This document shows, piece by piece, positions 1-52,235 of a DNA stretch of 64,000 bases. Within the stretch, counting starts at the first letter, position 1, and every line of letters begins with the position of its first letter. This stretch comes from an uncultured Gammaproteobacteria bacterium (GTDB taxonomy: Bacteria; Pseudomonadota; Gammaproteobacteria; GCA-002705445; GCA-002716945). The stretch covers positions 854 through 64,853 of the forward strand of contig CAJWPJ010000003.1 in the NCBI GenBank assembly GCA_913045115.1, in the 5' to 3' direction. The position numbers and the translations under genes were made by a program. Under the pieces are notes generated by a model. That model made no database searches. It was given only the letters and a program-made list of their open reading frames with translations, and was not told the DNA's origin.

Positions 1-1266
1 GAAAAAAAGATTTTTTACGTCTTCTGATTTATTATGAAACCGGAACCATGCAGATTGCTGAAAAAGTGGAGCGATCGAGAAACCTGAACCCCAAGAAGTG
101 TGGAACTTACGCTCAAATGTATCGGGTGTGACAAAAAAGGATTCGTCCAACGAATCTGATAATCCAGGCATAATGGTCGTTTCGAGTTGATACATGACCC
201 TTTGCTTGAGTTTCTCCCCTTCATCCTCCCAATTTATGCCTGATTGCTTGTTGGGTACGGGTGCGAGAACATAAAATGCATCACCATCTGGTGGAGCCAT
301 GCTTTCATCGGTGGCAGACGGCCGGTGTAGGTACAAACTCAGGTCATCTGAAAGAATCTGCCGATCGAAAATGTCCTCTAACAATTTTTTATATTCTTCG
401 CCGAATAAAATGGTGTGGTGTTTGATAGAGGGGAACCTCTTTTTGGTGCTGAAATACCAGACAAAAAGCCCCATTGAGTACGATAGGGATTTTAACTTTT
501 TATCGGTCCACTTCCGTCGTTTTTCAGAGGGTATCAATTTCTCATAAACCATAGGCGGATCAGCATCACAAACTACAATGTCTGACTCAATTTTTTCACC
601 TGAGGCTAAGATCACACCTTTTGCCTCACCGTTTTGAACCAAGATTTGTTTTACAGTTCTGTTATAATTGAATTTTATACCAACTTCTCTCGATAATTTT
701 TCAATTGCCTGTACCAATGCTCCGGTTCCTCCTTTAGGAAACCAAACTCCCCATTTTCGTTCCAGATAGTGAATTAAACAGTAGATAGAAGTCGTTTGAA
801 AGGGGTTACCACCGACTAGAAGAGGATGAATAGAGAATGCTCGCCTGAGGCGCTCGTCTTTTATGTATTGGCTGACGAAATCATAAACTGATAGGTAGCT
901 CTTCAGGCTAAGTAATACAGGAACCTGACGAAGCATCGTGCTAAATTTGTTGAATGGTTTGTCTGAGAGATCCTCGAAGCCCACCTCAAAAATTTTTTTT
1001 GAATACTCAACTAAACCGCGATAATTTTCCTCAGGATTTTCTGAGACCCGTTCTATTTCACTTTCGGTGTCTTTAATCTTCCCGCCATAATCCATGTATG
1101 TTTTATCTTTAAAATGAAATCGATACCAGGGTTCGACAGGTAAAAATTTTATGTAATCACTCCTATCACGACCGAATAAATTAAATAACTCATCAAATAA
1201 AAAAGGAGCAGTTATTGTATCTAAAAATAACGCTGAGATACTATATAACAGTGATTTTATAAATAG
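1..1266 (-). pseudogene. Phytoene desaturase-family FAD oxidoreductase (CrtI-like); C-terminus runs off the window start, N-terminal dinucleotide-binding region absent
   Basis: Reverse-strand translation (codon phase 1-3, 4-6, ...) reads ...AFSIHPLLVGGNPFQTTSIYCLIHYLERKWGVWFPKGGTGALVQAIEKL...LAPVPNKQSGINWEDEGEKL...QQSAWFRFHNKSEDVKNLFF with no stop down to position 1. I recognise a near-identical signature from CrtI (SLLVGGNPF...LEREWGVWFPRGGTGALVQ...QSAWFRPHN). The frame is closed upstream by in-frame stops at 1267-1269, 1273-1278 and 1300-1302, leaving no room for the GxGxxG Rossmann segment. First in-frame Met is at 1095. Confidence 0.55.
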
Positions 1267-1303
1267 CTATGATTATTACCTGCCGATATGTCCAGAGAAT
1301 TAT

Positions 1304-1948
1304 TTGATTTATTACAATTATGTGAAAAAAATAGCTCCTGATGTAAATAACATTAATCTTTCATGTGCTAGAACAATATTAATGACGAGTGATAAGTTAA
1401 CTTTTAAGGAAATCTGTAATAAAAAAAATATACCTAATCCGGATTTATTTGATTTATTTACAGGTAACAAGCTATATATTGAGAAAGATAGAACTGGTTG
1501 CGGATCTACAAATGTTAGAATAGTCAAAGATAATAAGTCTTATAAAAATGATAGAATTATTGAAAAATATATACCAGGATCTAGCTTCAGTATTAGCTTG
1601 CATGTTACTCACAAAAGCTATCATATAATGTCAATTAATAGACAAATAATTCAAAAGAAAAAAAATCATATTAAATTGAAGGCATTAGTGGTTAATATCT
1701 ATCCTTCATTTAAAAATCATTTATATAATTTTGTTGAGAATATTTTGAACGCTTTTCCAAAACTTAGAGGATTTATTGGTTTAGATTTTATTGAGTACAA
1801 AGGAGAGCTATTTTTAATTGAAATAAATTCAAGATATACAACTTCCATGTCTCTAATTGAAAGATGCAAGAAAAAGAATCCATTAGATTACATATGTGAC
1901 AGAGGAAAAAACATAGCAGGAAAATCATGTCGATTAGAACTAATTTAA
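1304..1948 (+). CDS. ATP-grasp domain protein (MfnD/MptN-like ligase). At 214 aa it looks short on the N-terminal side
   Basis: C-terminal GELFLIEINSRYTTS resembles the ATP-grasp LIEIN(P/S)R motif. The protein begins at the central domain and sits inside the cofactor-biosynthesis island. Confidence 0.5.
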   Translation: MIYYNYVKKIAPDVNNINLSCARTILMTSDKLTFKEICNKKNIPNPDLFDLFTGNKLYIEKDRTGCGSTNVRIVKDNKSYKNDRIIEKYIPGSSFSISLHVTHKSYHIMSINRQIIQKKKNHIKLKALVVNIYPSFKNHLYNFVENILNAFPKLRGFIGLDFIEYKGELFLIEINSRYTTSMSLIERCKKKNPLDYICDRGKNIAGKSCRLELI

Positions 1949-2976
1949 TTAAGATAGGATGGGATCTAGGTGGTGCACACATAAAGTACTGCGTTGAATC
2001 CCAAGCATCAAATATAATTTGGTACGATATAATACATTTCGATTTTTGGAAAGATTACTCAAAACTAAGCGCCCTAATTATAGATATTTGTAAACAATAT
2101 CATGAAAAAGGAGCATTAATAGAAAACTATTTTACAATGTCAGCTGAGATGTGTGATTGTTTTGAGAACAGAAGTGCTGGCGTAAAATATATTCTCAATC
2201 AGATAAAAAAAATTAAATATAGCTCATATATTTTTTCAAAGAGTGGGTTAAGTAAGCTAGACAATAAGTATAAAATTTATCCAGATAAAGTTGGATCCTA
2301 TAATTGGTATGCTTCAGCCCTATATATATCAACACTTATTGATAATGTAATTCTAATTGATTTTGGGTCTACCACCTGTGACTTTTCAATAATAAAAAAT
2401 GGGAAAATTCTTAACAAAAGGACCTCAGATATAGATGGAATGTTAACTGGGGAACTTTTATATACTGGCTGTTCAAGGACACCAATATATGCGCACATCA
2501 ATCAAATAAGATTTGGAAATAGAATTTATAATATTATCCCAGAAAACTTTTCTTCTATGTCAGATGTTAATATAATTTTGGGTAAGTTAAACAAGCAAGA
2601 TGTTTATTCAAAATCGTCAGATGGATCAAATCATTCTTTGCTGCAGTCATACAAACGAATCTGTAGATCATTTGGGTTTGATTATAATAGCTCTATGAAA
2701 AAACTCGTGAATCATCTATGCTTGAAAATCTATGATGCTCAAGTTGATTTGATCAATAAGACATTATCCCTCCACTGTCATAAATATTTTAGGGACTCTA
2801 AATATAATATTGTTGGGCTAGGATTAGGATCGAAAATTATTATGAATATGTGTAAGCAGAATAGATATGACTATATAGATGTAAGAGATATACTAAATGA
2901 TACTATAGTAAATGGTGATTATTTATCGAATCTTTTTCCTGCATTCGTTTTAAATAGGTTAAGCAATGAGTTATAA
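1927..2976 (+). CDS. Hydantoinase/oxoprolinase-like ASKHA-fold protein of the H4MPT-linked C1-transfer pathway family
   Basis: N-terminal IGWDLGGAHIKY is an actin/hydantoinase-like phosphate-1 motif. The family assignment (one_C_unchar-type) comes from the neighbouring MfnB/DUF447/DHPS-like genes. Confidence 0.45.
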   Translation: MSIRTNLIKIGWDLGGAHIKYCVESQASNIIWYDIIHFDFWKDYSKLSALIIDICKQYHEKGALIENYFTMSAEMCDCFENRSAGVKYILNQIKKIKYSSYIFSKSGLSKLDNKYKIYPDKVGSYNWYASALYISTLIDNVILIDFGSTTCDFSIIKNGKILNKRTSDIDGMLTGELLYTGCSRTPIYAHINQIRFGNRIYNIIPENFSSMSDVNIILGKLNKQDVYSKSSDGSNHSLLQSYKRICRSFGFDYNSSMKKLVNHLCLKIYDAQVDLINKTLSLHCHKYFRDSKYNIVGLGLGSKIIMNMCKQNRYDYIDVRDILNDTIVNGDYLSNLFPAFVLNRLSNEL

Positions 2977-4318
2977 ATTACATCCACTAGATTTTTCAAT
3001 TCCATCTGAACAGGTCTTTGAGAGCATTAAGAATGAGGATTGGTCTGTATTTTTGAATAGTAACAACAAAAAGTATACCGATCAGAGATTTGACATACTA
3101 TCTGCTAGTCCTAAACAAAAAATTATATTTTCTGATGATAGCGCTTATCTTATAAATAAAAATGAAGAACCAAAAAAAACTGAATTATGTCCATTTGAAT
3201 TATTAAGAGAAGTCATGAGTAAGTACAAATCTAATTGTGATACTGATATACCATTCTCTGGTGGCGCAATAGGTTATATATCTTATGATTATGGCAACTA
3301 TTTACATAATATTGAGAATAAAAATAATCATTTCAATCAACCTCTTTTGGCATTTGGTATTTATGATTGGGCTGTTATCTATGATTATGCTCTTGAAAAA
3401 TCATTCCTCTTATACCATGAAAAAAATTCTATAACTGAAAATATTATAAATAATAATAAGAAGAGTCTTGATTCTAATGTAATGCCTTTTCAGATCACAT
3501 CTAGATGTGAGTCGAATATGAACTATGATTTATATGAAATGAAGCTTCTTAAAATCTTAGAATATATAAGAGCCGGAGATTGCTATCAAGTGAATCTATC
3601 TCAGATGTTTACACTTAGTTATGAAGGGAACGAATATGAGTTATATAAAAACCTAAACAAATCCTTTGCTTCACCTTACTCTGCATATATGAATTATCCA
3701 TTTGGAAAGATCTTATCTTTCTCCCCTGAAAGATTCTTATCTATCAAGAATAATATTGTTGAAACTAAGCCTATTAAGGGCACTAGACCAAGGTCAGATG
3801 ATCCAAACATAGATAAAAAAAATATAGAAGATCTAGAATCATCTCAGAAAGATAGAGCAGAGAATCTAATGATAGTAGACTTACTAAGGAACGATTTAGG
3901 AATGAATTGTAAAAAGGGCAGTGTTAAAGTAGATAAGCTTTTTGATATAGAAACTTTTGCAAATGTACATCATTTAGTAAGCACAATTCATGCAGAAATA
4001 GATAGTGAATCAAATATTTATAATCTTATCAAAGATGCATTTCCGGGCGGTTCTATCACTGGCGCACCTAAGTTAAGAGCAATGCAAATTATCCATGAAC
4101 TTGAGCCTAATAATAGATCTATTTATTGTGGATCAATCGGTTATATTAGTTTTGATGAGAAAACAGACTTTAATATTTCTATAAGATCCATGATCTCTAA
4201 AGACAATAACTTATACTTCTGGGGCGGGGGTGGTATAGTATACGACTCTGATATTCGAAGTGAATATAATGAGACAATATCTAAAGTCAAACCACTTCTT
4301 GATATATTCTCTGATTAA
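2966..4318 (+). CDS. pabB: Chorismate-binding enzyme, aminodeoxychorismate synthase component I (PabB-like)
   Basis: C-terminal FPGGSITGAPKLRAMQIIHELEP...IYCGSIGYISFD matches the TrpE/PabB signature. Length 450 aa. Confidence 0.7.
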   Translation: MSYKLHPLDFSIPSEQVFESIKNEDWSVFLNSNNKKYTDQRFDILSASPKQKIIFSDDSAYLINKNEEPKKTELCPFELLREVMSKYKSNCDTDIPFSGGAIGYISYDYGNYLHNIENKNNHFNQPLLAFGIYDWAVIYDYALEKSFLLYHEKNSITENIINNNKKSLDSNVMPFQITSRCESNMNYDLYEMKLLKILEYIRAGDCYQVNLSQMFTLSYEGNEYELYKNLNKSFASPYSAYMNYPFGKILSFSPERFLSIKNNIVETKPIKGTRPRSDDPNIDKKNIEDLESSQKDRAENLMIVDLLRNDLGMNCKKGSVKVDKLFDIETFANVHHLVSTIHAEIDSESNIYNLIKDAFPGGSITGAPKLRAMQIIHELEPNNRSIYCGSIGYISFDEKTDFNISIRSMISKDNNLYFWGGGGIVYDSDIRSEYNETISKVKPLLDIFSD

Positions 4319-4991
4319 TAAGTTTGAAATTTTTTAAGATATCCTGACATATCATTGAATCAATATCTTCTCGTTTTGAATTAGAGCATAACGCTCCACG
4401 CAAACCTATAAAATCTGGTTGTAGAGAAAGCACATCTTCAAATTTAGTTGGTGTAATAGATCCTGATATCCCACAGAATTTGCCAGACTTCTTGCATGAC
4501 TCCACAAAAAACTTCAATGTGTCTCTTGTTAAAATATCTAGTGTAGATTGGTTGTTTTTTGAAACAGTGTCTATCATAAGCCCATCATAATTTAACTTAA
4601 GTATATTTTCTAGTTCCTGCTCATTATTTATCAAGTCTGCAAATATCACACCAACAGTTTTGATAGACAATTTTTTTATTGATTTTAAAAAAATAGAATG
4701 TTGTTGTAACAAGTTGTTATCGAATATTCCTATCTTTATATATTCGATACCCAAATGCTCTAATAACTCTACTCTTCTCAATTGTTCTTTTGTTAGTGGG
4801 CTAGAGTCGTTACCCGCAGTAACACTTAATGTACGACCACTAAATATTTCAGTAATTTTTTTTAAAGAGTTATCTCCGACGTAACCAAGTGCACCATCGT
4901 TTACGTTCTTAATGTCAATTATGTCAAAGTCAAATTTAGACATTATCTCAGCTTCATTTTCGTCTTTAATACTAGCTAGGATCTTAGTCAT
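4287..4991 (-). CDS. mfnB: (5-formylfuran-3-yl)methyl phosphate synthase family protein (MfnB/DUF556)
   Basis: N-terminal KILASIKDENEAEIMSKFDFDIIDIKNVNDGALG, an internal IKIG, and GISGSI...DFIGLRGALC at the C-terminus match the MfnB/DUF556 family. Length ~234 aa. Confidence 0.65.
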   Translation of the reverse strand: MTKILASIKDENEAEIMSKFDFDIIDIKNVNDGALGYVGDNSLKKITEIFSGRTLSVTAGNDSSPLTKEQLRRVELLEHLGIEYIKIGIFDNNLLQQHSIFLKSIKKLSIKTVGVIFADLINNEQELENILKLNYDGLMIDTVSKNNQSTLDILTRDTLKFFVESCKKSGKFCGISGSITPTKFEDVLSLQPDFIGLRGALCSNSKREDIDSMICQDILKNFKLINQRIYQEVV

Positions 4992-5556
4992 TTTTAAAAT
5001 AGCTATTAATTTTATCTTCTATCCAGCTCCATGCTTGCTTCTCATTCTCCCCAGCTGTTTTATCTATGCCTATTTTTAAATACTCATACTCTCTCTTGAC
5101 TTTATCATCATCTATCATGCCTAATCTTGTTGAGAGAACAGCTAATTCAATGACTGAAAATTGGGCCCTATTAAATCCCATAAAGGGTCTTAGATTCTGC
5201 GTGTTTTGGATATAACAAATGATTTTAGGTCTTAGTTCATCTTCTAAAATACTTGATACCTTCAAGTTCATATATGAATTTGTATTAGATAGATGTGCAA
5301 CTTCATCCTTCGGTTGATGATTCAAATCCCATTTCTTCTTCTTGCCTGTAACTATTCCGGCAAACACCTTGACATCGTCTATGTAATTTATTGTAGCTTT
5401 TTTAGTATTGATAAGATTCTCTAATGTCTGTGACGGTTTGAATGGTGATATTTGAACACACTCCTGACTTTCATGATCAATGAACTTAATTCCCATAGGA
5501 GCAATATGTACTCGATTATCTTCATCTACCGTTGTAACAATTACTTCATGAATCAT
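4984..5556 (-). CDS. DUF447 family protein; MfnF/orf21-like and cofactor-biosynthesis associated
   Basis: 190-aa protein overlapping the MfnB-like and DHPS-like genes by 8 and 4 nt. The adjacency DUF447-DUF556 is typical of methanofuran/H4MPT islands. Confidence 0.45.
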   Translation of the reverse strand: MIHEVIVTTVDEDNRVHIAPMGIKFIDHESQECVQISPFKPSQTLENLINTKKATINYIDDVKVFAGIVTGKKKKWDLNHQPKDEVAHLSNTNSYMNLKVSSILEDELRPKIICYIQNTQNLRPFMGFNRAQFSVIELAVLSTRLGMIDDDKVKREYEYLKIGIDKTAGENEKQAWSWIEDKINSYFKND

Positions 5557-6935
5557 TTTCTTTTTTTGAAGGTTGGCCCTAATTCTTTACTCTGGAGTTT
5601 ATTATCAACTTTTTTATCAACTAAGCAACCCCATCCTAACTCTTCATCTTGTTGATATTCTTTTTTTAATTGATATGCAATTTGAGCTCTTGCTAATTCT
5701 ACTCCTAAATAAAAGGCATGTCCCGAGTCATTACTTATCTCTAGATGCTCATAGAAATCAAATGGATCAGCAAAAATCTTATATATATTTTTGTTAAATA
5801 AATGAATGCCATCATCATTCACATATATCCTATAATTTTTATCTTTAATATTACTTTGCATCTCAATGAGTTCATCAGAGCAAAGTGCATAATCTTTATG
5901 CCCATGATTTACTAAAAGACCATCATTAATATGTTTAGGTGTTAAGTTATTTTCAGATGCCGCATGAATAATTCTTCTTGCAAGATCTGTCTCTCTGATA
6001 ACAGTTGAACAATGTCTGCTCACTTGCGTGGTTAGTATATGATTAAGTTTGAGTTCTTCAATGATGCCTAGCATAATCATGTTTATCCCAGAGGTATCAG
6101 CATGCGTTAGTTCTGTTATGTTGCCAAGTCCTATCATAATATGAATGTCAGGATATTTTTCTCTTAGGCTTACGTATCTCATTAAGCTTTCTGTGAAGCC
6201 ATACGATATTGGATCAAGTATAGGATCAGCAATGAATATTAATTTATCGTCTATAGCGCGATCAACTAGCTTATAAAACTCAGGTATATTATTTTCTGTT
6301 GGAATCAAAATCGGATATGAATCTAAATTTTCAAGTATATGGTATGTTTCTGCTTTGATACTTAGTAGATAATCAGCACCTGCTTTTGAGCCTCGAATAA
6401 GCTCGTCAGTATTATGTGAGTCAATGCTAACGTAAAAATTTCTGCTCTTTAGCTCTTGGACAATCTCTTCAAGATGAGGAAAGTGTTTGTTTGGTAAACA
6501 GCCCACATCAATTACATCTGCACCCTCAGATCTGAAGTATTCTGCTTTTTGAATGACTTGATCAACAGTCATATTTAGTGCATCTGTTATTTCTCCAAAT
6601 ATTGATGTTTCAAATTTTGAAAGGTCATACTTTACTGGCTTTGCTCCAAAGAGAAGGGGTAAATCTTTGAGTTCATCTGGACCTCTAGTAATCTTTTTTC
6701 TTATGTTATTTTCAAGTATTTTGATATCACCTCTTACTCTTCCAGGTATGATTATCTCATCAAAGCCATCCACATTACCGATTCTCCTTTCGATCATTTC
6801 AGTAGTTAGGAGTGCTGCAACATTTACATTTAAGTTTCTTATTTCATATGAAAAGTTCTTATCTTCTATACTATCAATTACTGTTTTAAGACCTTTCTCT
6901 GCTAATTTCCCAGTTATGAATAGAATGTTTTTCAT
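5553..6935 (-). CDS. Dihydropteroate synthase-like pterin-binding protein with an N-terminal extension (MptH/orf20-like)
   Basis: Contains SEGADVIDVGCLPN, which resembles the DHPS pterin-binding motif (DIIDVGGEST). Length 460 aa, longer than FolP. It is operonic with the DUF447, MfnB and flavoprotein genes. Confidence 0.55.
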   Translation of the reverse strand: MKNILFITGKLAEKGLKTVIDSIEDKNFSYEIRNLNVNVAALLTTEMIERRIGNVDGFDEIIIPGRVRGDIKILENNIRKKITRGPDELKDLPLLFGAKPVKYDLSKFETSIFGEITDALNMTVDQVIQKAEYFRSEGADVIDVGCLPNKHFPHLEEIVQELKSRNFYVSIDSHNTDELIRGSKAGADYLLSIKAETYHILENLDSYPILIPTENNIPEFYKLVDRAIDDKLIFIADPILDPISYGFTESLMRYVSLREKYPDIHIMIGLGNITELTHADTSGINMIMLGIIEELKLNHILTTQVSRHCSTVIRETDLARRIIHAASENNLTPKHINDGLLVNHGHKDYALCSDELIEMQSNIKDKNYRIYVNDDGIHLFNKNIYKIFADPFDFYEHLEISNDSGHAFYLGVELARAQIAYQLKKEYQQDEELGWGCLVDKKVDNKLQSKELGPTFKKRK

Positions 6936-7462
6936 TTAGCTAGCTTTGTAAGATTATTTTTTAAAGATTTAACATTATCAACAACAATTACATTCTTAAA
7001 TTTTTTAAGAGCTCTATAGTTTTTGAGGTCAATATCTCTTGGGTATAATGTTACGAGTTTTTTTGGTGCTTGCGTAATTACAATAGGCTCTGTGTCACAG
7101 GCAAAAACTAATGACTTCACCTCACATTTACCTGCCTGTGCAAACATATTAGTAACAAGGGTATCTGAGATGCCTTGTGCCATTAAAGCTATTGTGTTTG
7201 ATGTTGCTGGAGATATGACTACGAGTTTGTAGACTGATTCATATAATAAGCTAACTGGAGATGCACTTGATGTTACATCTCTAAAAATTTTAATTTTATT
7301 TTTTTTAAAAATAGATAAATCATAATCGTACCACTTTAGTACCTCTTCACCTGCTTTGCTTAAATATAAATCTACATTTTCAAAAGTTAGCATCAAATCT
7401 ATAGATTCTTTCAGGTAGTGACCTGAACCAGTTATACACCAAGCTATTCTTTTTTTATCCAT
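6932..7462 (-). CDS. Flavoprotein of the AfpA/DmrX (dihydromethanopterin reductase-like) or HFCD family
   Basis: 176 aa. N-terminal KRIAWCITGSGHYL is a flavodoxin-like FMN-binding start. Its position between MobA and the DHPS-like gene supports the call. Confidence 0.45.
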   Translation of the reverse strand: MDKKRIAWCITGSGHYLKESIDLMLTFENVDLYLSKAGEEVLKWYDYDLSIFKKNKIKIFRDVTSSASPVSLLYESVYKLVVISPATSNTIALMAQGISDTLVTNMFAQAGKCEVKSLVFACDTEPIVITQAPKKLVTLYPRDIDLKNYRALKKFKNVIVVDNVKSLKNNLTKLAK

Positions 7463-8063
7463 ATAATTTATTTATCAAAAATCTATTTTTTTCAATATCA
7501 TCTTTTGAATTAATATTTATAAACATCTCTTCACTTTGTTCAAAGCAAATATCTTTATAACCGCATGCAGTATACCACTTATCAATTTTTCTCTCTCCTG
7601 TTTCTAAAAATACTTTTAAGTTTTCTTTTAGTGAAGATGCTAAACGTGCATAAACAGGTTGTAATCGATCTGCCGTCTTAACCACTAATATATTATGATT
7701 TTCTCCATAGTTGATAAGTTTCTCAAAATAGTCCTCCTTAATAAAAGGACCATCGCATGGCAGTATTATGACATGTTTATTTTTACATTTTGATAATGCG
7801 GTATATATACCTGAGAGAGGCCCCTGATAATCATCAAGTATGTCTGAGTGTATGTGTGGATGTAATTTTTTATATTCCTCAAGATTATTGTTAGTAATCA
7901 CAAATACATCATTTGAGTATTTACTAGAGAGTTTGACTATTCTTGATAAGACGGAAAACCCATTAAACTCTATCAAGCCCTTATCCTCATAGTCCATTCT
8001 AGATGATTTCCCTCCAGATAATATAGCGATAGATAGATCATCTTTTTGTATTTTAGTTGACAT
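7455..8063 (-). CDS. mobA: Molybdenum cofactor guanylyltransferase MobA
   Basis: AILSGGKSSRMDYEDKGLIEFNG, DYQGPLSG and ILPCDGP align with E. coli MobA ([37 protein letters not shown]). Confidence 0.7.
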   Translation of the reverse strand: MSTKIQKDDLSIAILSGGKSSRMDYEDKGLIEFNGFSVLSRIVKLSSKYSNDVFVITNNNLEEYKKLHPHIHSDILDDYQGPLSGIYTALSKCKNKHVIILPCDGPFIKEDYFEKLINYGENHNILVVKTADRLQPVYARLASSLKENLKVFLETGERKIDKWYTACGYKDICFEQSEEMFININSKDDIEKNRFLINKLYG

Positions 8064-8113: not shown

Positions 8114-9079
8114 ATGAAAATATTCTTAGCACCAATGGTTGGGAGAACTGATAAATACTTCAGAAGACTAGTGAGAATAATCTCTTCCAATATAATTATG
8201 TTCACTGAAATGATTACAGTAGACTCTTTAATAAGGGGTAATATTAGAAACTATACTGTAGATAAAAGCGAACATCCCGTAGTCGCACAGATAGCTGGTA
8301 ATGATTCAAAGAAATTTGCTGAATGCGCTGAAATACTCACAACATCAGACTTTGATGAAATCAACCTAAATATTGGTTGCCCAAGTGCAAAAGTAGTTAA
8401 AGGCGGTTTTGGAGCATGTCAGATTGTTGATCCATATAGCGTTGCCAAGTTCGTTGAGTCGATTAAGTCATCTACAGATTTACCTGTGTCAATCAAAACT
8501 AGGTTAGGACTTGGTTTCGATCAAAGTTTAGAAGACATCAAAAAATTTATTAAACTAACCAGCGAAGCCGGCTGCAAGACTTTTTATATTCATGCGAGAA
8601 ATGCCATTCTAAATGGTTTATCAACAAGGAAAAATAGGTCTGTTCCGCCCTTGAGGTATGATGACGTGATGAAACTCAAAGAAATATATCCACACTTAGA
8701 TATATATATCAATGGAGGTATAGTTGATTTAGAAGACCTAAAAAAGTTATTAAAAATTTATGGAGGCGTAATGTTAGGAAGAAAGATATATGACGATCCT
8801 ATGTTTCTAAATGATATTGAGAAAAATATATACTCCTCTAATAGTAAGTTATCTACTTATGACATTATTTGTAGATACATTGATCAACTCGATGAAGAAG
8901 ATTCTCACAATAAGTTATATGCACTAAAACATCTTGTAAACTTATATAAAGGAACATGCTATGCAAAAAAATGGAGAAAATTTTTACATTCAATGATAAA
9001 TTCTGATCAACCAATACAAAATATTAAAAATTTCGATTATAGGAGCAATAATGAAAAAAGAGAAATTAACTGCTCGTAA
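8114..9079 (+). CDS. dusA: tRNA-dihydrouridine synthase DusA
   Basis: LAPMVGRTDKYFRRL at the N-terminus and the TIM-barrel Dus family sequence along the whole length. Confidence 0.8.
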   Translation: MKIFLAPMVGRTDKYFRRLVRIISSNIIMFTEMITVDSLIRGNIRNYTVDKSEHPVVAQIAGNDSKKFAECAEILTTSDFDEINLNIGCPSAKVVKGGFGACQIVDPYSVAKFVESIKSSTDLPVSIKTRLGLGFDQSLEDIKKFIKLTSEAGCKTFYIHARNAILNGLSTRKNRSVPPLRYDDVMKLKEIYPHLDIYINGGIVDLEDLKKLLKIYGGVMLGRKIYDDPMFLNDIEKNIYSSNSKLSTYDIICRYIDQLDEEDSHNKLYALKHLVNLYKGTCYAKKWRKFLHSMINSDQPIQNIKNFDYRSNNEKREINCS

Positions 9080-9857
9080 AGCCGATATCAATTCACTTTA
9101 TGAGGAATCGGTTCAATGTCCAGAATTTGAAGTAGGCTTTATAAAAAAATTATTCAAGAAATATTACAAATCTAGGTGTAGAAGCCTAAGGGAAGACTTT
9201 TGTGCTTCGGCATTAATCTCAGCTGAGTGGGTTCTGGATAATAAGGATAATACATCTCTTTCAGTAGATTTAGATAGAAAAATGATTGACGCTGCAAAAA
9301 AAACTGCCTCAGAAAAACTACAAAACGAACAACGCTCTAGAATGAAAATAAGATATGGTGATTCTTCAAAATACAAGGGAGATATAGTGGATTGTATCCT
9401 TGCTACAAACTTTAGCTATTTTGTATTTAAAGATAGACAGAAGCTAATTAAATATTTTTCAAATGCCTATAATCAATTAAAAAAGAAGGGCTTATTTATG
9501 CTTGATGCATTTGGTGGATATGAAGCACATCAACTTTTAGAAGAGAGAACCAAGCACAAAAATTTTACATACGTTTGGGACCAATCTTCTTTCAATCCAA
9601 TAACTCATGAGATTCAATGCTATATCCATTTTGAGTTTCCAGATAAGACAAAGAAAAATAAAGCATTTAGTTACAACTGGAGGCTATGGACGTTGCCTGA
9701 AATTCAAGAGTGCCTAAGAGAGGCTGGATTTAGATATGTTGATATTTATATGCAGGGCTGGGATGATGAAAAGGATGAGGAGACAGAAAAGTTTTATAAG
9801 GTAACCAAATGCGACGCAGATCCTGCATGGGTAGCATATCTAGTGGCAAGAAAATAG
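9051..9857 (+). CDS. Class I SAM-dependent methyltransferase with a degenerate motif I
   Basis: The methyltransferase motifs appear in the expected order: LREDFCASALIS (motif I-like), DLDRKMIDAA (post-I), DIVDCILATNFSYF (motif II), KKGLFMLDAFG (motif III). Confidence 0.4.
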   Translation: MKKEKLTARKADINSLYEESVQCPEFEVGFIKKLFKKYYKSRCRSLREDFCASALISAEWVLDNKDNTSLSVDLDRKMIDAAKKTASEKLQNEQRSRMKIRYGDSSKYKGDIVDCILATNFSYFVFKDRQKLIKYFSNAYNQLKKKGLFMLDAFGGYEAHQLLEERTKHKNFTYVWDQSSFNPITHEIQCYIHFEFPDKTKKNKAFSYNWRLWTLPEIQECLREAGFRYVDIYMQGWDDEKDEETEKFYKVTKCDADPAWVAYLVARK

Positions 9858-11034: not shown

Positions 11035-11956
11035 TACTGATTACCATATACCCGTGATGAAGCACGAGGCGGTAGAACAGTTGCTGTCAAATAATGATGG
11101 TATATATGTCGATGCAACTCTTGGGTATGGAGGTCATACAAGGTTAATTCTGGAGAAAACTTCATCTAAATCTAAACTATATGGAATCGATAAAGATATT
11201 GATGCCATTGAATTTAACAAGAAAGAATTAGCACAAGAGAAGAGGTTTACCCTTAAACATGGATGTTTTTCTTCTCTTGATGAATATGCAAAAACCTGGA
11301 ATATATATGGATCTGTAAACGGCATTTTATTTGATTTAGGAGTGTCATCTGTTCATCTTGATAGTGCAGATAGAGGCTTTAGCTTTAATAAAAATGCGCC
11401 TTTGGATATGAGATTTGATAGAACACACGGAAAATGTGTCTCACAGTTAATAAATGAACTTCCTGAGAGCGAAATCGAGTCTATTTTAAAACTGTATGGT
11501 CAAGAAAAGTTTTCTAGAAGAATAGCTAAAAATATTATCAAGCATAGGTCTAATAATCCTATCGAGAATACGCTTGAGCTTGTGGATATCATCAATAAAT
11601 CTGTCATTGTTAACGATAAGAATAAACATAACGCAACGCGATCTTTTCAAGCACTAAGGATATTTGTAAATAAAGAACTTGATGTCCTTAGAGAAGTGCT
11701 TCATAAATCATATAATATTCTCGCCCCAAAAGGGAGGCTGGTGTTAATAACTTATCACTCTTTAGAGGAAAGAGTCATAAAGGATTTCATTATATTTTGT
11801 GATAACAATCAAAACACACCTAGAAAGATGCCAATAAAGAAAGATTTCTTAAAAAAGATGTTTACGGTAATAAAAAAAGTTAAACCATCTGACAAAGAGA
11901 TATCTTTAAACCCCAGATCCAGATCTGCAAAAATTAATGTCCTGGAGAAGCAGTAA
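11027..11956 (+). CDS. rsmH: 16S rRNA (cytosine1402-N4)-methyltransferase RsmH
   Basis: [16 protein letters not shown]...DATLGYGGH...[20 protein letters not shown] start the gene at the ATG at 11027; the tracked ORF extends upstream to 10952. Confidence 0.85.
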
Positions 11957-12225
11957 TGAATCTAACATCCTCATTTCTTTTAATAATTCTTATAACTATG
12001 TCTGCATTTAGTGTAATTTTTATCAAATATCAAAATAGGATGTTAAATATCGAAATTTCTAAAAATGAAAAAAAGTTATTTTACCTTTCTGAGTCTTATA
12101 GAAAGTTACTTCAGAAAAAAATTGAAATTACAGATAGTAGGCTGCAAAAAAGTAGCTTGGGTAAGGCGCTAAATATGCAACTTCCATCAAAAGAAAGAAT
12201 TTTAATCATGAACGTAGAACGCTAG
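11956..12225 (+). CDS. ftsL: Cell division protein FtsL
   Basis: 89 aa with an N-terminal TM helix followed by a coiled-coil region. Position after rsmH fits. It ends with a TAG stop. Confidence 0.7.
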   Translation: MNLTSSFLLIILITMSAFSVIFIKYQNRMLNIEISKNEKKLFYLSESYRKLLQKKIEITDSRLQKSSLGKALNMQLPSKERILIMNVER

Positions 12226-12234
12226 GAGGACACC

Positions 12235-13383
12235 ATGTTTGAAATAGTTAATAATTATAATCAAAATGCAGTTATCAAAGTTATTGGTGTTGGAGGTGGT
12301 GGCGGAAACGCTATTATATCAATGCTAAAGTCTCAAATACATGGGGCAGATTTTTTGATTGCAAACACAGACGTACAAGCGTTAAGGGATGTAGACGGAG
12401 CCACAACCGTCCAAATCGGTTCTGAGATAACAAAAGGATTGGGTGCAGGCGCTGATCCTGAGAAGGGGCGCCAAGCTGCACTCGAAGCTAGTGAAACTCT
12501 AAGAGAGTCTATTGAAGGAGCTGACATGCTGTTCATTGCTGCCGGGATGGGCGGAGGAACTGGTACAGGAGCTGCTCCAGTAATTGCTCAAATCGCACGT
12601 GATCTTGGTATTCTTACTGTAGCGGTTGTTACAAAACCCTTCGATTTTGAGGGCCCTGAAAGAATGTCAAATGCTCAAGAAGGGATAAATAATCTTGAAC
12701 AATGGGTCGATTCTTTAATTGTGATACCGAACTCAAAGTTGAAAGAAGTCTATGGAGGAAATGAGTCAATATTTTCTTCTTTCGAGAATGCTAATGATGT
12801 TTTGAGAGGAGCCGTGAAAGGTATTACAGAGATAATTACTATAAGAGGGTTTATGAATGTGGACTTTGCTGACGTAAAAACTGTCATGTCAGGTATGGGT
12901 AAAGCAATGATGGGATCCGGAGTATCATCTGGAGAAAATAGAGCCGAAGAAGCAGTGACAACAGCATTGAGCAGTCCCTTATTAGATAATATAGATCTTC
13001 AGGGTGCTAGCGGAGTACTTGTTAATATTACTTCCGGATCTGATTTAACGACGGATGAGTTTGAGGTGATTGGAAGTAAAATTAGAGAGATAGCTAACGA
13101 AGACGCTAAGATAATTACTGGCTGTATTAAAGAAGATGATAATATTGGAGATCTTAGAGTTACAATAATTGCAACTGGATTCGCTCAATCTGGTTCTGTT
13201 GATACTCAGTTGATGGAAGCAAATTCAAATGATGCAGAAATTAACACTTTAAATAACCAAAATTCATCAATATTGTCTGGTAACGACATCAATAAAGTGG
13301 ATACTCCTCAAGTAAACTTAAATCAACAAGAGGATCAGACATCACTTGATATACCGGCATTTTTAAGACAACAGGCCGATTAA
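12235..13383 (+). CDS. ftsZ: Cell division GTPase FtsZ
   Basis: Contains VIGVGGGGGNA and the tubulin signature GGGTGTGAAPVIA. A strong SD (AGGAGG) sits 7 nt upstream. Confidence 0.95.
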   Translation: MFEIVNNYNQNAVIKVIGVGGGGGNAIISMLKSQIHGADFLIANTDVQALRDVDGATTVQIGSEITKGLGAGADPEKGRQAALEASETLRESIEGADMLFIAAGMGGGTGTGAAPVIAQIARDLGILTVAVVTKPFDFEGPERMSNAQEGINNLEQWVDSLIVIPNSKLKEVYGGNESIFSSFENANDVLRGAVKGITEIITIRGFMNVDFADVKTVMSGMGKAMMGSGVSSGENRAEEAVTTALSSPLLDNIDLQGASGVLVNITSGSDLTTDEFEVIGSKIREIANEDAKIITGCIKEDDNIGDLRVTIIATGFAQSGSVDTQLMEANSNDAEINTLNNQNSSILSGNDINKVDTPQVNLNQQEDQTSLDIPAFLRQQAD

Positions 13384-15094
13384 TAATAATCCTAAATCTG
13401 AGACTTTAAGGCTGCTGTTATTTATAACAGCAGCTTTAGTTTTATTTTTACTGATAGTAACTAGATTATATTATATTCAAATCCAAGGAACTGATTGCTT
13501 CTTCTTCAATGAGAGTTCATGTAAGCAAAATATTTCTATTGAGGCAAAAAAAAGACAGATTCATAATCAGGTTATAAAAGCAGAAAGAGGAGTAATTTTT
13601 GACAGAAACAAAAATATACTAGCAATGTCACTTCCTGCGAAAACGCTATGCATTAATCCAAATAAACTCCATCGCAATGAAAATAAATCAGATGTTCATG
13701 AGTTATCAAAGCTATTAAACATTCCATATGATAAATTAGTGAAGATTATCGATAGAAATAAAAATAAAAAGGAATATTTTCTCAAACGGCATATCTCAAA
13801 AGAAACCTATGTTGAAATAAACAAATTATCTACCCCAAATATTTATTTTATTAATGAGAATAAAAGATCTTATTTAGGAGGCGAGGCTTTCTCAAACATA
13901 ATAGGTTTTACAGATATAGATGATAATGGTCAGGAAGGAATTGAGTTAGTAAATAACAATATTCTCAAGCCCTCGAATGGTTCTAAAATAATAAAAATGG
14001 ATAATATTGGAAGACCAATTGAAACGATTGAGGTAACTAAAAAGTCTATTCCTGGAGAAAATTTAATATTAACTCTTGATAAGAGAATTCAGATAATTGC
14101 ATATGATGTACTAAAAAAATATGTCAACAAATATAAGGCAGAGAGCGGGTCTATTGTCCTTGTAGAGTCAAACACAGGCAATATCTTATCTATGGCAAAC
14201 TACCCATCTTTTGATCCAAAAAAAAGATATACTTACAAAGGTATTAAAATTAAGAATAGGGCAGTTTATGATCTAATAGAGCCTGGATCTACTATCAAAC
14301 CTTTTATAATTTATGCAGGTTTGAAAAATAAGATTATTGATGAATCGACTATAATTAGGACTGCTCCAGGAGTCATCAAACTTGCTGATAATGAAATTAA
14401 AGATTGGAAATACCTTGGCGATGTCTCTGCGGAGGATATTATAAAGCTATCCAGTAACATAGGTGCAGCGAAAATATCTAGAAAGCTTGCAAAAACAGAA
14501 CTCACGCGTACTCTTGATTCATTTGGTTTTGGACAGTCATTATTTCTGAATTTGCCAGGCTCTAAGAATGGATCAATACCATCACCTACCAATATTAATG
14601 ACTCAAAGCATTTCAGCATTGGTTATGGTTATGGTTTATCTGTGTCATTGATGCATCTTGTCAGTGCATATAATATATTAGCTAATGATGGAGCCTATAT
14701 TCAATTAAAGTATCTTAGAAATACAGAAATAGATGACAGTAAACATCAAATTTTAGATAAGAAACTCAGTGGTCAAGTCCTAAAAATGATGAAAGAAGTT
14801 GTTCATTCGCATGATGGGACTGGTAAAAAAGCAGCAGTTGATGGTTATTCTGTATATGGTAAAACAGGAACGGTCCGTAAGATAAAAAATGGAAAATACA
14901 ATAAAAATTTACATAATGCATTATTTATAGGAATACTAGGTGATCCATCGCCAAAATATGTAGCTGCTGTAATAATTAGAGAACCCAAAGACAGAGAGGG
15001 CTCCGGTGGGTATCATGCTGCACCTGTTTTCGGTGAATTTCTTCAACACTCAATGAGAATTTTAGATGACATTAAGTATGCGGGAAAACAATAA
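13379..15094 (+). CDS. ftsI: Peptidoglycan D,D-transpeptidase FtsI (PBP3); the 5' end is uncertain
   Basis: The tracked ORF (13625-15094) contains the SxxK-type motif AVYDLIEPGSTIKP, SSN and KTG. The in-frame sequence upstream, open from 13367, encodes the expected TM anchor LRLLLFITAALVLFLLIV and the conserved ERGVIFDRNKNILA, but has no ATG, GTG or TTG. ATT at 13379 is one candidate start. Confidence 0.8.
   Translation: MNNNPKSETLRLLLFITAALVLFLLIVTRLYYIQIQGTDCFFFNESSCKQNISIEAKKRQIHNQVIKAERGVIFDRNKNILAMSLPAKTLCINPNKLHRNENKSDVHELSKLLNIPYDKLVKIIDRNKNKKEYFLKRHISKETYVEINKLSTPNIYFINENKRSYLGGEAFSNIIGFTDIDDNGQEGIELVNNNILKPSNGSKIIKMDNIGRPIETIEVTKKSIPGENLILTLDKRIQIIAYDVLKKYVNKYKAESGSIVLVESNTGNILSMANYPSFDPKKRYTYKGIKIKNRAVYDLIEPGSTIKPFIIYAGLKNKIIDESTIIRTAPGVIKLADNEIKDWKYLGDVSAEDIIKLSSNIGAAKISRKLAKTELTRTLDSFGFGQSLFLNLPGSKNGSIPSPTNINDSKHFSIGYGYGLSVSLMHLVSAYNILANDGAYIQLKYLRNTEIDDSKHQILDKKLSGQVLKMMKEVVHSHDGTGKKAAVDGYSVYGKTGTVRKIKNGKYNKNLHNALFIGILGDPSPKYVAAVIIREPKDREGSGGYHAAPVFGEFLQHSMRILDDIKYAGKQ
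13411..13450 (+). terminator. Rho-independent terminator-like hairpin downstream of ftsZ
   Basis: GCTGCTGTTA (13411-13420), a TTTA loop, then TAACAGCAGC (13425-13434), followed by the T-rich tract TTTAGTTTTATTTTTA. Confidence 0.5.
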
Positions 15095-23775: not shown

Positions 23776-24599
23776 GCAAGAACTATCCTCTTAAAAAGAT
23801 CACAACTATTGGACTAGGGGGCTACTGTAAAGAATTTATCTGTCCAGAAGAAGACAAAGAACTGATAGAGATTACAAAAACTAATCCTCTTTACATAGGT
23901 AATGGGTCAAACATGTGTTTTGTAACTGAGTTCTATGACAGGACTATAGTCAGCCTTAAAAAGATGAAAAAATACATTAATATTGATGAGCAATATATTA
24001 CTTGTTCAGGCAATATATCATGTACAAAATTATCTAGACATCTTCATGATAATAAACTGCCAGGTTATGAATTTCTCTATGGTATTCCGGGAACTATTGC
24101 TGGAGCAGTTACTATGAATGCTGGAGCCTTTAAAAAAGAGATAATGCCTAATGTTTACAGTATAGATCTACTAGATGAGAAAGGTAATGCGTACACCCTG
24201 ACTCAAGATAATTTATCATATTCATATAGAACATCCAACATTAATACAAGATCTATTATAGTTTCTATTAAACTTTTAAGACAAACAGAAGATTTTGATA
24301 TTAACCTTCTTGATACACTTAACGATAAAAGAAAGTCAACTCAACCAATTAATCAATTATCATGTGGTTGTATTTTCAAAAATCCACCAGGAGATTATGC
24401 CGCTGGACTTATTGAGAAAGCCGACTTAAAAGGTAAACGTGTTGGTGGGATATATATCTCTGAAAAACATTCAAATTATTTTATTAATGATGGATCAGGA
24501 ACTTATAAAGATTTCCTACTCCTACTTCAGTGTGTCAAAAATGAAATATATACCAAGTTCGACATATTACTTGAAGAGGAGGTCATACTATTGAAATGA
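23766..24599 (+). CDS. murB: UDP-N-acetylenolpyruvoylglucosamine reductase MurB
   Basis: FAD-binding TTIGLGGY start; length 277 aa; sits between murC and ddl. Confidence 0.8.
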   Translation: MFIGKNYPLKKITTIGLGGYCKEFICPEEDKELIEITKTNPLYIGNGSNMCFVTEFYDRTIVSLKKMKKYINIDEQYITCSGNISCTKLSRHLHDNKLPGYEFLYGIPGTIAGAVTMNAGAFKKEIMPNVYSIDLLDEKGNAYTLTQDNLSYSYRTSNINTRSIIVSIKLLRQTEDFDINLLDTLNDKRKSTQPINQLSCGCIFKNPPGDYAAGLIEKADLKGKRVGGIYISEKHSNYFINDGSGTYKDFLLLLQCVKNEIYTKFDILLEEEVILLK

Positions 24600-25501
24600 A
24601 AAGCAAGGATTTTAGAATATGCGTCCTAGGAGGAGGTTGGTCAAATGAAAGAGAAATTTCTTTAAAAAGTTCTTCTGATGTCTATAAAACTTTACTTGAA
24701 AATAAACATAATGTTGTATTCTTTGATATGAAAAGAGATTCGTATGAGGATTTAAAATCTTTTTTATTAAATAATTCAGTTGATTATGTATTTAATCTTA
24801 TCCATGGAGAGGGTGGGGAAGATGGGAAAATACAAAGCTATTTAGATAATCTAGACATAAATTATTCTGGATCAAATTCACAATCATCTAGAATATCATT
24901 TAATAAATATCAAACGAAAGAGATATGGAAAGCTAACAATCTAGACACTCCTGATTATGAAATATTTTCTAATCAGACCTATGAGGATTTATCTATGTTA
25001 TATGGAGAAACTTTTTTTATTAAAGATACTTGTTCTGGTTCAAGTAATAATATTTTCCAAATTAAATGTAATAAAGATTTTGAAAATTTTGAAAAACATA
25101 AAAGTAACAGAGAATATATGATAGAAAAGAAAATATCATCCGATGAATATACAGCAGCTATCCTAAATGAGAGAGTACTGCCAATAATTAAGATTATTCC
25201 CTCTAATGAATTTTATGATTTTGAGGCAAAATATAAATCCAATGAAACTAAATTTTCATTTCCTGATTTAACTCAGTCAATAACAAATAAAATTAATACT
25301 CAAGTTACCGATGCTTTTAGGGTTTTAGGGTGCGAATCGTGGGCAAGAGTTGATTTTTTTATAGAAGATGAGCAAATTATTTTACTAGAAATTAATACAA
25401 TTCCTGGAATGACTGATCATAGCCTTGTCCCAAAGGCTGCAAGGAAATATGGTCTGAGCTATTATCAGCTAGTACTCGAGATTATTGGTATAGATGATTA
25501 G
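24596..25501 (+). CDS. ddl: D-alanine--D-alanine ligase
   Basis: ICVLGGGWSNEREISLKSS at the N-terminus, ATP-grasp C-terminus, EINTIPGMT motif. Confidence 0.85.
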   Translation: MKSKDFRICVLGGGWSNEREISLKSSSDVYKTLLENKHNVVFFDMKRDSYEDLKSFLLNNSVDYVFNLIHGEGGEDGKIQSYLDNLDINYSGSNSQSSRISFNKYQTKEIWKANNLDTPDYEIFSNQTYEDLSMLYGETFFIKDTCSGSSNNIFQIKCNKDFENFEKHKSNREYMIEKKISSDEYTAAILNERVLPIIKIIPSNEFYDFEAKYKSNETKFSFPDLTQSITNKINTQVTDAFRVLGCESWARVDFFIEDEQIILLEINTIPGMTDHSLVPKAARKYGLSYYQLVLEIIGIDD

Positions 25502-26138
25502 GACACTTCTAATCTCATCAATTATTTTACTGACTATACTTCTTTATAAATCAGATTACTTTGTGTATCCAATAGATGAGGTTGAAATTGTCTCAACTAC
25601 CTCAAACCACAATAATCGTAAAATTAATGATATCGTAAATTCTCTTCAAGGGAGTGACTTACTATCGCTTGATTTGAATATGTTAAAAAATAAACTAATA
25701 TCGGATGGGTGGATAAAAGATGTTGAAATAAAGAAATCTTTTCCATCAAAACTAGAGATAATCATAGTCCCTCAAGAGCCCTACGCTATTTATAACTCGC
25801 AGATATTGATGAAAGATGGTTCTGTTTTAAAATCAAAGGTTTTACCAAAAAATCTTGTTATTGTAGTTGATAAGACAAATAACAAGCTAGACTCTCTAGA
25901 GCTATTGATGTTGTGTAATGAGATGCTAGCTAAAATAGATCTCAATATCATAAAACTTGAAATATATGACTCTATCATCAAAATAAATACTTCATCAAAT
26001 TTATTGATATCTGACAGGAAGAATTTAGAATTGAATCTCAAAAGATTGATCGAGTCATTTGATAATCTTCAAACGTTGTTTAAGAAAGATATAAAATCTA
26101 TAGATATGCGATATTCCAATGGTTTTGCTATCAAATAA
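25494..26138 (+). CDS. ftsQ: Cell division protein FtsQ, short form (214 aa)
   Basis: N-terminal TM helix and a POTRA-like region; position between ddl and ftsA. Confidence 0.7.
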   Translation: MIRTLLISSIILLTILLYKSDYFVYPIDEVEIVSTTSNHNNRKINDIVNSLQGSDLLSLDLNMLKNKLISDGWIKDVEIKKSFPSKLEIIIVPQEPYAIYNSQILMKDGSVLKSKVLPKNLVIVVDKTNNKLDSLELLMLCNEMLAKIDLNIIKLEIYDSIIKINTSSNLLISDRKNLELNLKRLIESFDNLQTLFKKDIKSIDMRYSNGFAIK

Positions 26139-26166
26139 TAGCTTAAATGAGATATAATGTTCGTTA

Positions 26167-27411: not shown

Positions 27412-27474
27412 TATATCCAATTTGGTCTAATCATATGAATTGTAAGACATAGAGCATTTTGGTAGAATTTCCGT

Positions 27475-42151: not shown

Positions 42152-42474
42152 TTCTTTGGGATTATTTTTAAACCCTTTTGTTTTGAATAGTATGTTGATA
42201 AATCAATGATGTCTTGTTCGGAGAGGCCTGCAGCGAATCCACTCATAATAGCATTGTTTCTCTCACCACTTTTGTATGCATTTAATGCATGAATAAGATA
42301 ATTCTTATATTGACCCGCTAGTCGAGGATACATTTTGTTCTCACCATTACCATCAGCCCCATGACATGCAGAGCAAGTAGCGGATTTATCTTTTCCTCGA
42401 TCATAACTGGCATCCGCATGAACTTGATGTGAAAACACAAAAACTAGACAAATTATGTATAGAATATTTTTCAT
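42148..42474 (-). CDS. Monoheme class I cytochrome c
   Basis: Signal peptide and the CSACH heme-binding motif. Confidence 0.75.
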   Translation of the reverse strand: MKNILYIICLVFVFSHQVHADASYDRGKDKSATCSACHGADGNGENKMYPRLAGQYKNYLIHALNAYKSGERNNAIMSGFAAGLSEQDIIDLSTYYSKQKGLKIIPKN

Positions 42475-52233: not shown

Positions 52234-52235
52234 AA

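Follow-up and report, generated by a model that had tools for sequence, protein, structure and literature searches.

The DNA examined here, called the window below, is a stretch of 64,000 nucleotides from contig CAJWPJ010000003.1 of an uncultured gammaproteobacterium (assembly GCA_913045115.1). Close to its left end it carries genes related to those for the biosynthesis of two one-carbon (C1) cofactors, tetrahydromethanopterin (H4MPT) and methylofuran (MYFR). By 'island' we mean these cofactor genes at positions 1196-8063, where the calls of open reading frames (ORFs) span 1304-8063 (Table 1). An initial annotation, made from the sequence without database searches, had counted nine contiguous genes in this interval, but the ORF listing holds eight of real size, three on the plus and five on the minus strand. 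Just one additional ORF of at least 80 residues is present, a 90-residue frame lying antisense within the gene for the protein that resembles dihydropteroate synthase (DHPS). As the initial annotation had it, the minus-strand genes form an overlapping operon, neighbouring genes sharing 4-8 nt according to their coordinates; the plus-strand genes overlap by 11-22 nt, and the convergent pabB and mfnB genes by 32 nt.

Table 1. Features of the window discussed in the text, with coordinates and supporting matches (scores in bits, with model cutoffs where available).
Feature	Position	Strand	Evidence
Foreign segment, internal fragment of a CrtI-type flavin amine oxidoreductase gene	1-1215	-	Amino_oxidase; GC 40%
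Junction, stretch AAATAAAAAAGGAGCAGTTAT nearly common to both source sequences	1195-1215		Three-way alignment
MfnD-like ATP-grasp ligase, orf1-type	1196-1948	+	ATP-grasp_3 94 bits; NF040722 MfnD_Meth, E 4.9e-19
MfnF-like (Orf9, Hydantoinase_A family)	1927-2976	+	TIGR03123, NF040623, Hydantoinase_A
PabB, aminodeoxychorismate synthase component I	2966-4318	+	TIGR00553 367.8 bits vs cutoff 328.4; Chorismate_bind 294 bits
MfnB (Orf22), 4-(hydroxymethyl)-2-furancarboxaldehyde phosphate (4-HFC-P) synthase	4287-4991	-	PF04476 4HFCP_synth 133.4 bits vs 22.4
DUF447 protein	4984-5556	-	DUF447_N 72 bits; DUF447_C 54 bits
DUF6513 + DHPS-like protein	5553-6935	-	PF20123 82.7 bits vs 23.9; TIGR00284 176 bits vs cutoff 256.65
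DmrB/AfpA-type flavin mononucleotide (FMN) flavoprotein	6932-7462	-	PDB 3WIS/4MWG, E 1.4e-47, full length
MobA, molybdenum cofactor guanylyltransferase	7455-8063	-	TIGR02665 149.6 bits vs cutoff 151.85
soxX-soxY-soxZ-soxA	51097-53041	-	SoxA-TsdA_cyt-c, SoxY and SoxZ above Pfam cutoffs

Searches with Pfam and NCBIfam models upheld most of the initial family calls, with the exception of the mapping of the DUF447 protein and of the DmrX label given to the flavoprotein. The strong family-level similarity seen for the MfnB (DUF556) homologue is borne out by its Pfam score and by an alignment with MfnB of Methanocaldococcus jannaschii (MJ1099; PDB 4RC1; E 6.7e-11), in which the D-x-K, YIK(V/I)G and M(L/I)DT motifs are retained. 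The DUF447 protein had been taken as the counterpart of MfnF, whereas it is the hydantoinase-like ORF that matches the MfnF models, NF040623 at E 1.2e-43 and TIGR03123 at 200.6 bits (E 3.7e-59) for a cutoff of 244.1. The same ORF exceeds the Pfam cutoff of Hydantoinase_A (49.8 bits vs 22.9), and synteny with the reference cluster of Aquabacterium supports its orthology with MfnF. Equating DUF447 with orf21 is likewise doubtful, because Orf22, Orf21 and Orf9 have been identified with MfnB, MfnE and MfnF, respectively (PMC8141765). DUF447 is a constant member of H4MPT/methylofuran clusters, with an identical position in those of Thiodictyon and Aquabacterium, and its relatives in the PDB are all uncharacterised proteins (3B5M, 2PTF, 2IML).

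As for the flavoprotein of 176 residues, the first half of its AfpA/DmrX-like label stands. The protein covers positions 1-170 of the 174 of the AfpA model TIGR02699 but only 1-142 of the 234 of the DmrX model TIGR02700, and it lacks the extra C-terminal Fe-S domain of archaeal DmrX. It is instead made of a single FMN-flavoprotein domain, as is DmrB (PDB 3WIS/4MWG, deposited as 'putative dihydromethanopterin reductase (AfpA)'; ~176-199 residues), a protein that we take to be of Burkholderia origin. MobA, encoded by the first gene of the minus-strand operon with an 8-nt overlap with the start of dmrB, aligns end to end with MobA of Escherichia coli (E 3e-20) and has kept the GGKxxRM, GPLxG and PCDxP motifs.

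The presence of PabB, a genuine folate-pathway enzyme, next to a protein with a weak Pterin_bind match could suggest that an ordinary folate (folP/pabB) cluster has been misread. That match, however, reaches 19.8 bits for a gathering score of 25.5 and is confined to residues 123-197 of the DHPS-like protein. The NCBIfam search yielded no match of this protein to the FolP model, nor did the PDB search return a relative of it, whereas DUF6513, MfnB, MfnF, DUF447 and DmrB are all matched in the island. On the strength of these family searches the folate reading is already refuted, and we give it practically no weight. The initial view of a cofactor block of the H4MPT/methanofuran type, here methylofuran, rather than a folate cluster or a set of unrelated families, has thus withstood the profile searches. 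The DHPS-like protein is also 44-46% identical to annotated DUF6513 proteins of H4MPT clusters in a plasmid collection. Distant genomic contexts were taken from that collection because a homologue search with the DHPS-like protein yielded its own lineage only (at least 62% identity).

The left border of the island has unusual features. The call of the ATP-grasp ORF begins at a TTG codon at 1304, but its reading frame extends back to 1196, and window positions 1196-1945 correspond in frame, at 99.6% identity, to residues 55-304 of an intact 304-residue ATP-grasp protein. The full-length form, found on native contigs, matches NF040722 MfnD_Meth at E 6.9e-26. The first 54 codons are thus lost at the junction, a truncation that had initially been read as a biological feature. 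The GC content is 40.4% for 1-1194 as against 30.7% for 1195-8063. Positions 1-1215 show 94.5% nucleotide identity to the JGI contigs Ga0160423_10000833 and Ga0163110_10001237, both of 42% GC, in which the counterpart gene encodes a complete 774-residue CrtI-CrtB fusion (Amino_oxidase and SQS_PSY domains); the fragment in the window has no N-terminus. In blastn searches, the window matches six marine metagenome contigs at 99.77-99.96% identity, but from position 1195 onward only, while the match on the CrtI side ends at 1215. A three-way alignment places the change from one source to the other inside the stretch shared by both, and the genes on either side are cut there.

The left 1.2 kb are most likely an inter-organism assembly chimera. 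The ATP-grasp gene would then be cut and the C1 enzymes missing from the window because the chimeric join replaced the native DNA, and the intact native arrangement is present on at least 22 contigs. We consider it very unlikely that the junction is biological, i.e. that the C1 module was lost and the ATP-grasp gene truncated through a rearrangement or the arrival of foreign carotenoid DNA, with a decaying orphan island left behind. Illegitimate recombination can likewise occur through short shared stretches, and the window sequence is continuous, without Ns, but both junction genes are cut and non-functional, and features of mobile elements are absent. The foreign side differs in GC content from the island and finds its matches in 42%-GC contigs, whereas the contigs with the intact arrangement belong to the same population as the window (99.8-99.96% identity). 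The metagenome contigs contain no exact copy of a 40-mer that bridges the junction, which is weak evidence if taken alone, and the rest of the island genes are free of decay. Under the preferred explanation, the chimera gave rise both to a false 'truncated gene' and to a false 'orphan island', which calls for caution from users of the source genome.

Marine metagenome contigs that encode DHPS-like and MfnF-like proteins identical to those of the window extend the locus leftward of the island. The intact ATP-grasp gene is followed there by a HisA/F-like gene of the orf17 type (TIGR00734), fae, a CitG-like gene, an ATP-grasp gene of the MptN/RimK type (MptN/MyfB-like), mch, a gene for a 358-residue ATP-grasp protein, mtdB, mptG, fhcB and fhcA. 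The series is continued by fhcD and fhcC on contig L112, whose proteins are 97-100% identical to those of the window population, and both proteins were confirmed in a sister genome (FhcD, TIGR03119 428 bits vs 292.6). Fae (TIGR03126 235.6 bits vs cutoff 118) and FhcA (TIGR03121 404.7 bits vs 392.75) score above their cutoffs, while MptG is matched by NF040726 at E 2.9e-34 and by TIGR00144 at 105.1 bits for a cutoff of 113.5. The linkage of the island to fae, mch, mtdB, mptG and fhcABCD is present in all the native contigs of the population and in all the related genomes examined. When the window was searched by tblastn with proteins of the lineage itself, no Fae, Mch, MtdB, MptG, FhcABCD, MtoX or FdhA was detected, in line with the initial statement that C1-transfer enzymes and mptG are missing from it. 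The search for these genes beyond the window, as had been recommended, recovered all of fae, mtdB, mch, fhc and mptG. The suggestion that a C1 module was 'encoded elsewhere' was therefore right as to its existence but wrong as to its place, as it natively adjoins the island.

FhcB of the native locus (contig L024, 932-2188, just outside the window) resembles archaeal FwdB/FmdB (E 1e-21 to 1e-15) more closely than it does FhcB of Methylorubrum extorquens (E 3e-5). Its N-terminal CPFCxxxCDD motif is retained, but the Cys/Sec-His pair of metal ligands (SV(C/U)HG motif) is changed to Val-Phe, and it looks like a non-redox type of Fhc protein.

The island belongs to a conserved locus. A scan of species-representative genomes identified 17 loci with 27-32% GC, on contigs some of which reach 0.94 Mb, all from uncultured marine Gammaproteobacteria, some of them labelled Ectothiorhodospiraceae. 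In all loci that are long enough, the order is rsmH-mraZ-(268-residue methyltransferase-like ORF)-dusA, then mobA-dmrB-DHPS-like-DUF447-mfnB, pabB-mfnF-mfnD, hisAF-like, and fae-citG-mptN-mch-ATP-grasp-mtdB. The C1 enzymes are highly conserved across these loci (Fae 76-100%, Mch 75-96% identity), and the cofactor genes diverge faster (MfnF 35-76%, MfnB 37-74%, MobA 39-82%). Comparison with the nearest species gives Nei-Gojobori dN/dS ratios of 0.04-0.17 for all eight genes and reveals no internal stop in their orthologs. The island genes are under purifying selection and are not decaying, contrary to a possibility that the initial annotation had left open.

We compared this locus with the 'archaeal-like' H4MPT/methylofuran cluster of methylotrophs, as found in M. 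extorquens and Methylobacillus flagellatus (PMC8141765) and on plasmid pTB101 of Aquabacterium olei. On this plasmid the flavoprotein-DUF6513-DUF447-MfnB operon recurs, and its neighbours are mfnF, genes for an ATP-grasp and a HisA/F-like protein, fhc, fae, pabB, mptG, mtdB and mch. In Aquabacterium and Thiodictyon as in our lineage, the flavoprotein-DUF6513/DHPS-like-DUF447 block adjoins mfnB in the same order; in the window, all three Pfam families of the block score above their cutoffs. The convergence of the ATP-grasp-MfnF pair on the operon and the adjacent HisA/F-like gene of the orf17 type are also features of the methylotroph cluster; in this system, MYFR formation requires orf17 as well as the ATP-grasp enzymes MyfA and MyfB (PMC8141765). 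Further genes in common with the native locus are the CitG-like and RimK/MptN-like ATP-grasp genes, mch, mtdB, mptG, fhcBADC, fae and pabB.

There are also differences. Unlike the methylotroph cluster, that of the lineage has no dihydroneopterin aldolase gene, and unlike that of Aquabacterium it has MobA added at the head of the operon and pabB at the position of mfnE. The proteins of the two systems are only 20-53% identical, and the GC content is ~31% as against 70% in Aquabacterium. With respect to the methanofuran enzymes MfnA-F of M. jannaschii, the window has homologues of MfnB, MfnD and MfnF, and the cluster is devoid of MfnA, MfnC and MfnE. The expected product of the lineage would be a bacterial methylofuran with a polyglutamate chain (PMC8141765), as opposed to an archaeal methanofuran. 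This is a standard bacterial H4MPT/methylofuran cluster, and the pathway has already been reported for this marine lineage at the pathway level.

Walking outward in the nearest sister species (PabB 87% and MfnF 79% identical to those of the window) and in one distant sublineage, we found a larger assembly. There, fhcBADC is followed by genes for a thiol-disulfide oxidoreductase and a SCO1/SenC-MauG fusion, and then by the gene of the methanethiol oxidase MtoX (NF052453 716 and 698 bits vs cutoff 650). Beyond mtoX lie genes for a FadL-like protein, a ferredoxin reductase, a ferredoxin, an FA_desaturase-family protein and then pterin-4a-carbinolamine dehydratase. The supercluster ends with an NAD-linked formate dehydrogenase (FDH), whose alpha subunit is well above the TIGR01591 cutoff (758.3 bits vs 666.25) and is encoded beside a NuoE/F-like subunit. 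The native supercluster, compact at ~45 kb, brings cofactor biosynthesis and MobA together with the H4MPT enzymes, Fhc, methanethiol oxidase and formate dehydrogenase. In the sister species, a 452-residue membrane protein of the FA_desaturase family is encoded between the FDH genes and mtoX (L116, 5192-11587), together with FadL-like outer-membrane and SCO1 proteins, a small ferredoxin and a BenC-like ferredoxin reductase. This group resembles a di-iron monooxygenase module, of the AlkB type or another. The order GCA-002705445, which we discuss below, is listed in papers among marine hydrocarbon degraders.

The genome also carries sox genes, as noted initially, in the form of soxXYZA in the window (Table 1). 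SoxY ends with GGCGG and the sox cytochromes have CxxCH motifs; the window contains neither soxB nor soxCD. Within a few kb of soxXYZA lie a YeeE/YedE-type sulfur transporter gene (48397-49608, plus strand; Sulf_transp 184 bits) and genes for two adjacent small mono-haem c-type cytochromes of 108 and 101 residues with one CxxCH motif each (42148-42776, minus strand). The products of MtoX are formaldehyde, sulfide and H2O2 (Eyice et al. 2018, as cited in PMC8371827), which would account for an H4MPT module and sox genes in one organism.

The host is probably an uncultured, streamlined, low-GC marine gammaproteobacterium of the GTDB order GCA-002705445. Methanethiol oxidase (MTO) and sulfur oxidation co-occur with a complete H4MPT pathway in all species representatives of the GTDB genus GCA-2705445 (bioRxiv 10.1101/2022.08.12.503524). 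For the order, SBP56 expression and genomes of less than 1.2 Mb (PMC8371827) as well as a GC content below 40% and difficult assembly (bioRxiv 10.1101/2025.05.13.653689) have been described. Our loci resemble this lineage in the co-occurrence of MtoX, a complete H4MPT pathway and sulfur-oxidation genes, with mtoX next to fhc in the sister loci, and in their GC content below 40%. Contigs of 0.94-1.04 Mb among the relatives compare with genomes of ~1.1 Mb in the papers, and a data set from the Great Barrier Reef includes circular genomes of ~1 Mb from this lineage. Those papers report dsrAB and soeABC, whereas the window has soxXYZA, and they deal with the presence of the pathway and not with the anatomy of the cluster, i.e. 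MobA, the missing MfnE and the linkage to FDH. The affinity with SUP05 and mussel symbionts implied by the initial annotation was not confirmed, as the literature search and the genome scan point to a different low-GC marine gammaproteobacterial lineage. TMED127/Methylaequorales, which has a similar 'methylotrophy island' (PMC12542740), was rejected as the host, being alphaproteobacterial.

Taken together, positions 1196-8063 very likely represent the cofactor-supply part of a conserved C1-oxidation supercluster that depends on H4MPT and MYFR, and whose C1 enzymes were cut off by the chimera. On the pterin side, PabB would provide para-aminobenzoate (pABA), both for folate and for MptG, the beta-ribofuranosylaminobenzene 5'-phosphate (beta-RFAP) synthase encoded just outside the window, which would convert pABA to beta-RFAP. 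The DUF6513/DHPS-like protein is predicted to be the pterin-arylamine condensing enzyme of H4MPT biosynthesis, and DmrB a dihydromethanopterin reductase yielding the active form of H4MPT. On the furan side, MfnB would build the furan phosphate that becomes the furan ring of methylofuran, and the MfnD-like ATP-grasp protein is a predicted glutamate-tyramine/tyrosine ligase that would produce Glu-Tyr or Glu-tyramine. MfnF would then couple the furan pyrophosphate F1-PP to this product to give the MYFR core. DUF447 presumably plays a part in the same pathways. With these cofactors, formaldehyde would be oxidised to formate by Fae, MtdB, Mch and Fhc (fhcBADC), whose genes adjoin the island on its left in the native locus. 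In the sister sublineages, formaldehyde would be supplied by MtoX, and the NAD-linked molybdopterin FDH is encoded in the same supercluster; we infer that the window's own species has both enzymes as well. The supercluster would give a genome of ~1 Mb a coherent route by which methanethiol derived from dimethylsulfoniopropionate (DMSP) is turned into CO2 and oxidised sulfur.

Several observations weigh against this interpretation. The equivalog models TIGR03123, TIGR00284 and AfpA (97 bits vs 192 for the last) score under their curated cutoffs, because the island sequences are of low GC and strongly diverged; the precise functions are therefore assigned by family-level homology and synteny. 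The chimera was deduced from the comparison with other assemblies rather than from read mapping. MtoX and FDH are documented for the nearest sister species and the distant sublineage but for no contig of the window's species, and the assignment to GCA-002705445 is circumstantial, as it draws on gene content, GC content and the size of contigs (0.9-1.0 Mb). Finally, with no MfnE in the lineage loci that were searched, one step of MYFR biosynthesis is unaccounted for. Sub-cutoff scores, along with the fact that neither DUF447 nor the DHPS-like protein has ever been biochemically characterised, might also suggest that the island makes a related, uncharacterised pterin/furan cofactor outside H4MPT-linked C1 transfer, which the initial annotation had put forward as a second option. 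This option is highly improbable in our opinion, as every native locus has the island genes in the midst of fae, mch, mtdB, mptG and fhcBADC, and the order of the operon is that of annotated H4MPT clusters. Supply of H4MPT and methylofuran to the adjoining C1 enzymes is the interpretation that we retain.

The association of MobA with the dmrB operon is real and lineage-specific, since mobA heads this operon in all 17 genomes of the lineage and is absent from the annotated clusters of Aquabacterium and Thiodictyon. The initial annotation had seen in MobA a hint at a molybdenum-enzyme partner, which proved reasonable. MobA most likely makes bis-molybdopterin guanine dinucleotide (bis-MGD) for the FDH of the same supercluster, which is a bona fide bis-MGD enzyme needing MobA and therefore its obvious client. 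The same flavoprotein operon is found in Thiodictyon in divergent orientation beside an FDH operon, which fits a link between MobA and FDH. FhcB was also considered as an MGD client and discarded, the replacement of its Cys/Sec-His pair by Val-Phe making this role unlikely.

As for MfnE (Orf21), the F1-P kinase, its homologue in the Aquabacterium reference cluster (NF040622) is encoded between mfnB and mfnF, where the lineage has pabB. A tblastn search with the Aquabacterium protein detected no MfnE homologue at E<=1 in the window and in 666 kb of lineage loci. DUF447 was ruled out as the kinase; the MfnE model matches a protein of the amino-acid-kinase type in the reference cluster, and the relatives of DUF447 are uncharacterised. 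MfnE may be encoded elsewhere in the genome. A speculative alternative would be that the MobA-like protein is itself a pathway enzyme in replacement of MfnE. MobA enzymes convert a phosphate monoester and GTP to a GMP-pyrophosphate ester. By formally analogous chemistry, the protein might guanylylate the furan phosphate F1-P or another phosphate ester, and the GMP-linked intermediate would be condensed by MfnF. The distribution of the two genes fits this scheme, as MfnE is present in the Aquabacterium cluster and absent from all lineage loci, while mobA is constant at the head of the dmrB-DHPS-like-DUF447-mfnB operon in the 17 genomes and missing from the Thiodictyon and Aquabacterium clusters. 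We nevertheless deem it very unlikely, given that the protein is a near-canonical MobA by its TIGR02665 score, its full-length alignment with the E. coli enzyme and its conserved motifs, that the bis-MGD FDH of the supercluster needs MobA, and that a genome of roughly 1 Mb leaves room for MfnE at another site. If true, it would represent a non-orthologous replacement in methylofuran or H4MPT biosynthesis and would explain both the coupling of MobA and the missing MfnE. Synthesis of bis-MGD for FDH is the role of MobA that we favour.

Two further observations concern the surroundings of the island. The methyltransferase-like ORF of 268 residues (9051-9857, plus strand), which overlaps the 3' end of dusA, has sub-threshold matches only to S-adenosylmethionine (SAM)-dependent methyltransferases and no NCBIfam match; it is conserved in all 17 genomes, at 58-88% identity. 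Further along, the division and cell wall (dcw) cluster is rearranged (window 11956-15094 and 24596-28383), with ftsZ (12235-13383) located between the ftsL and ftsI genes. Where the dcw cluster normally ends, ddl-ftsQ-ftsA is followed directly by lpxC, without ftsZ, and the same arrangement is found in the metagenome contigs L001 and L024.

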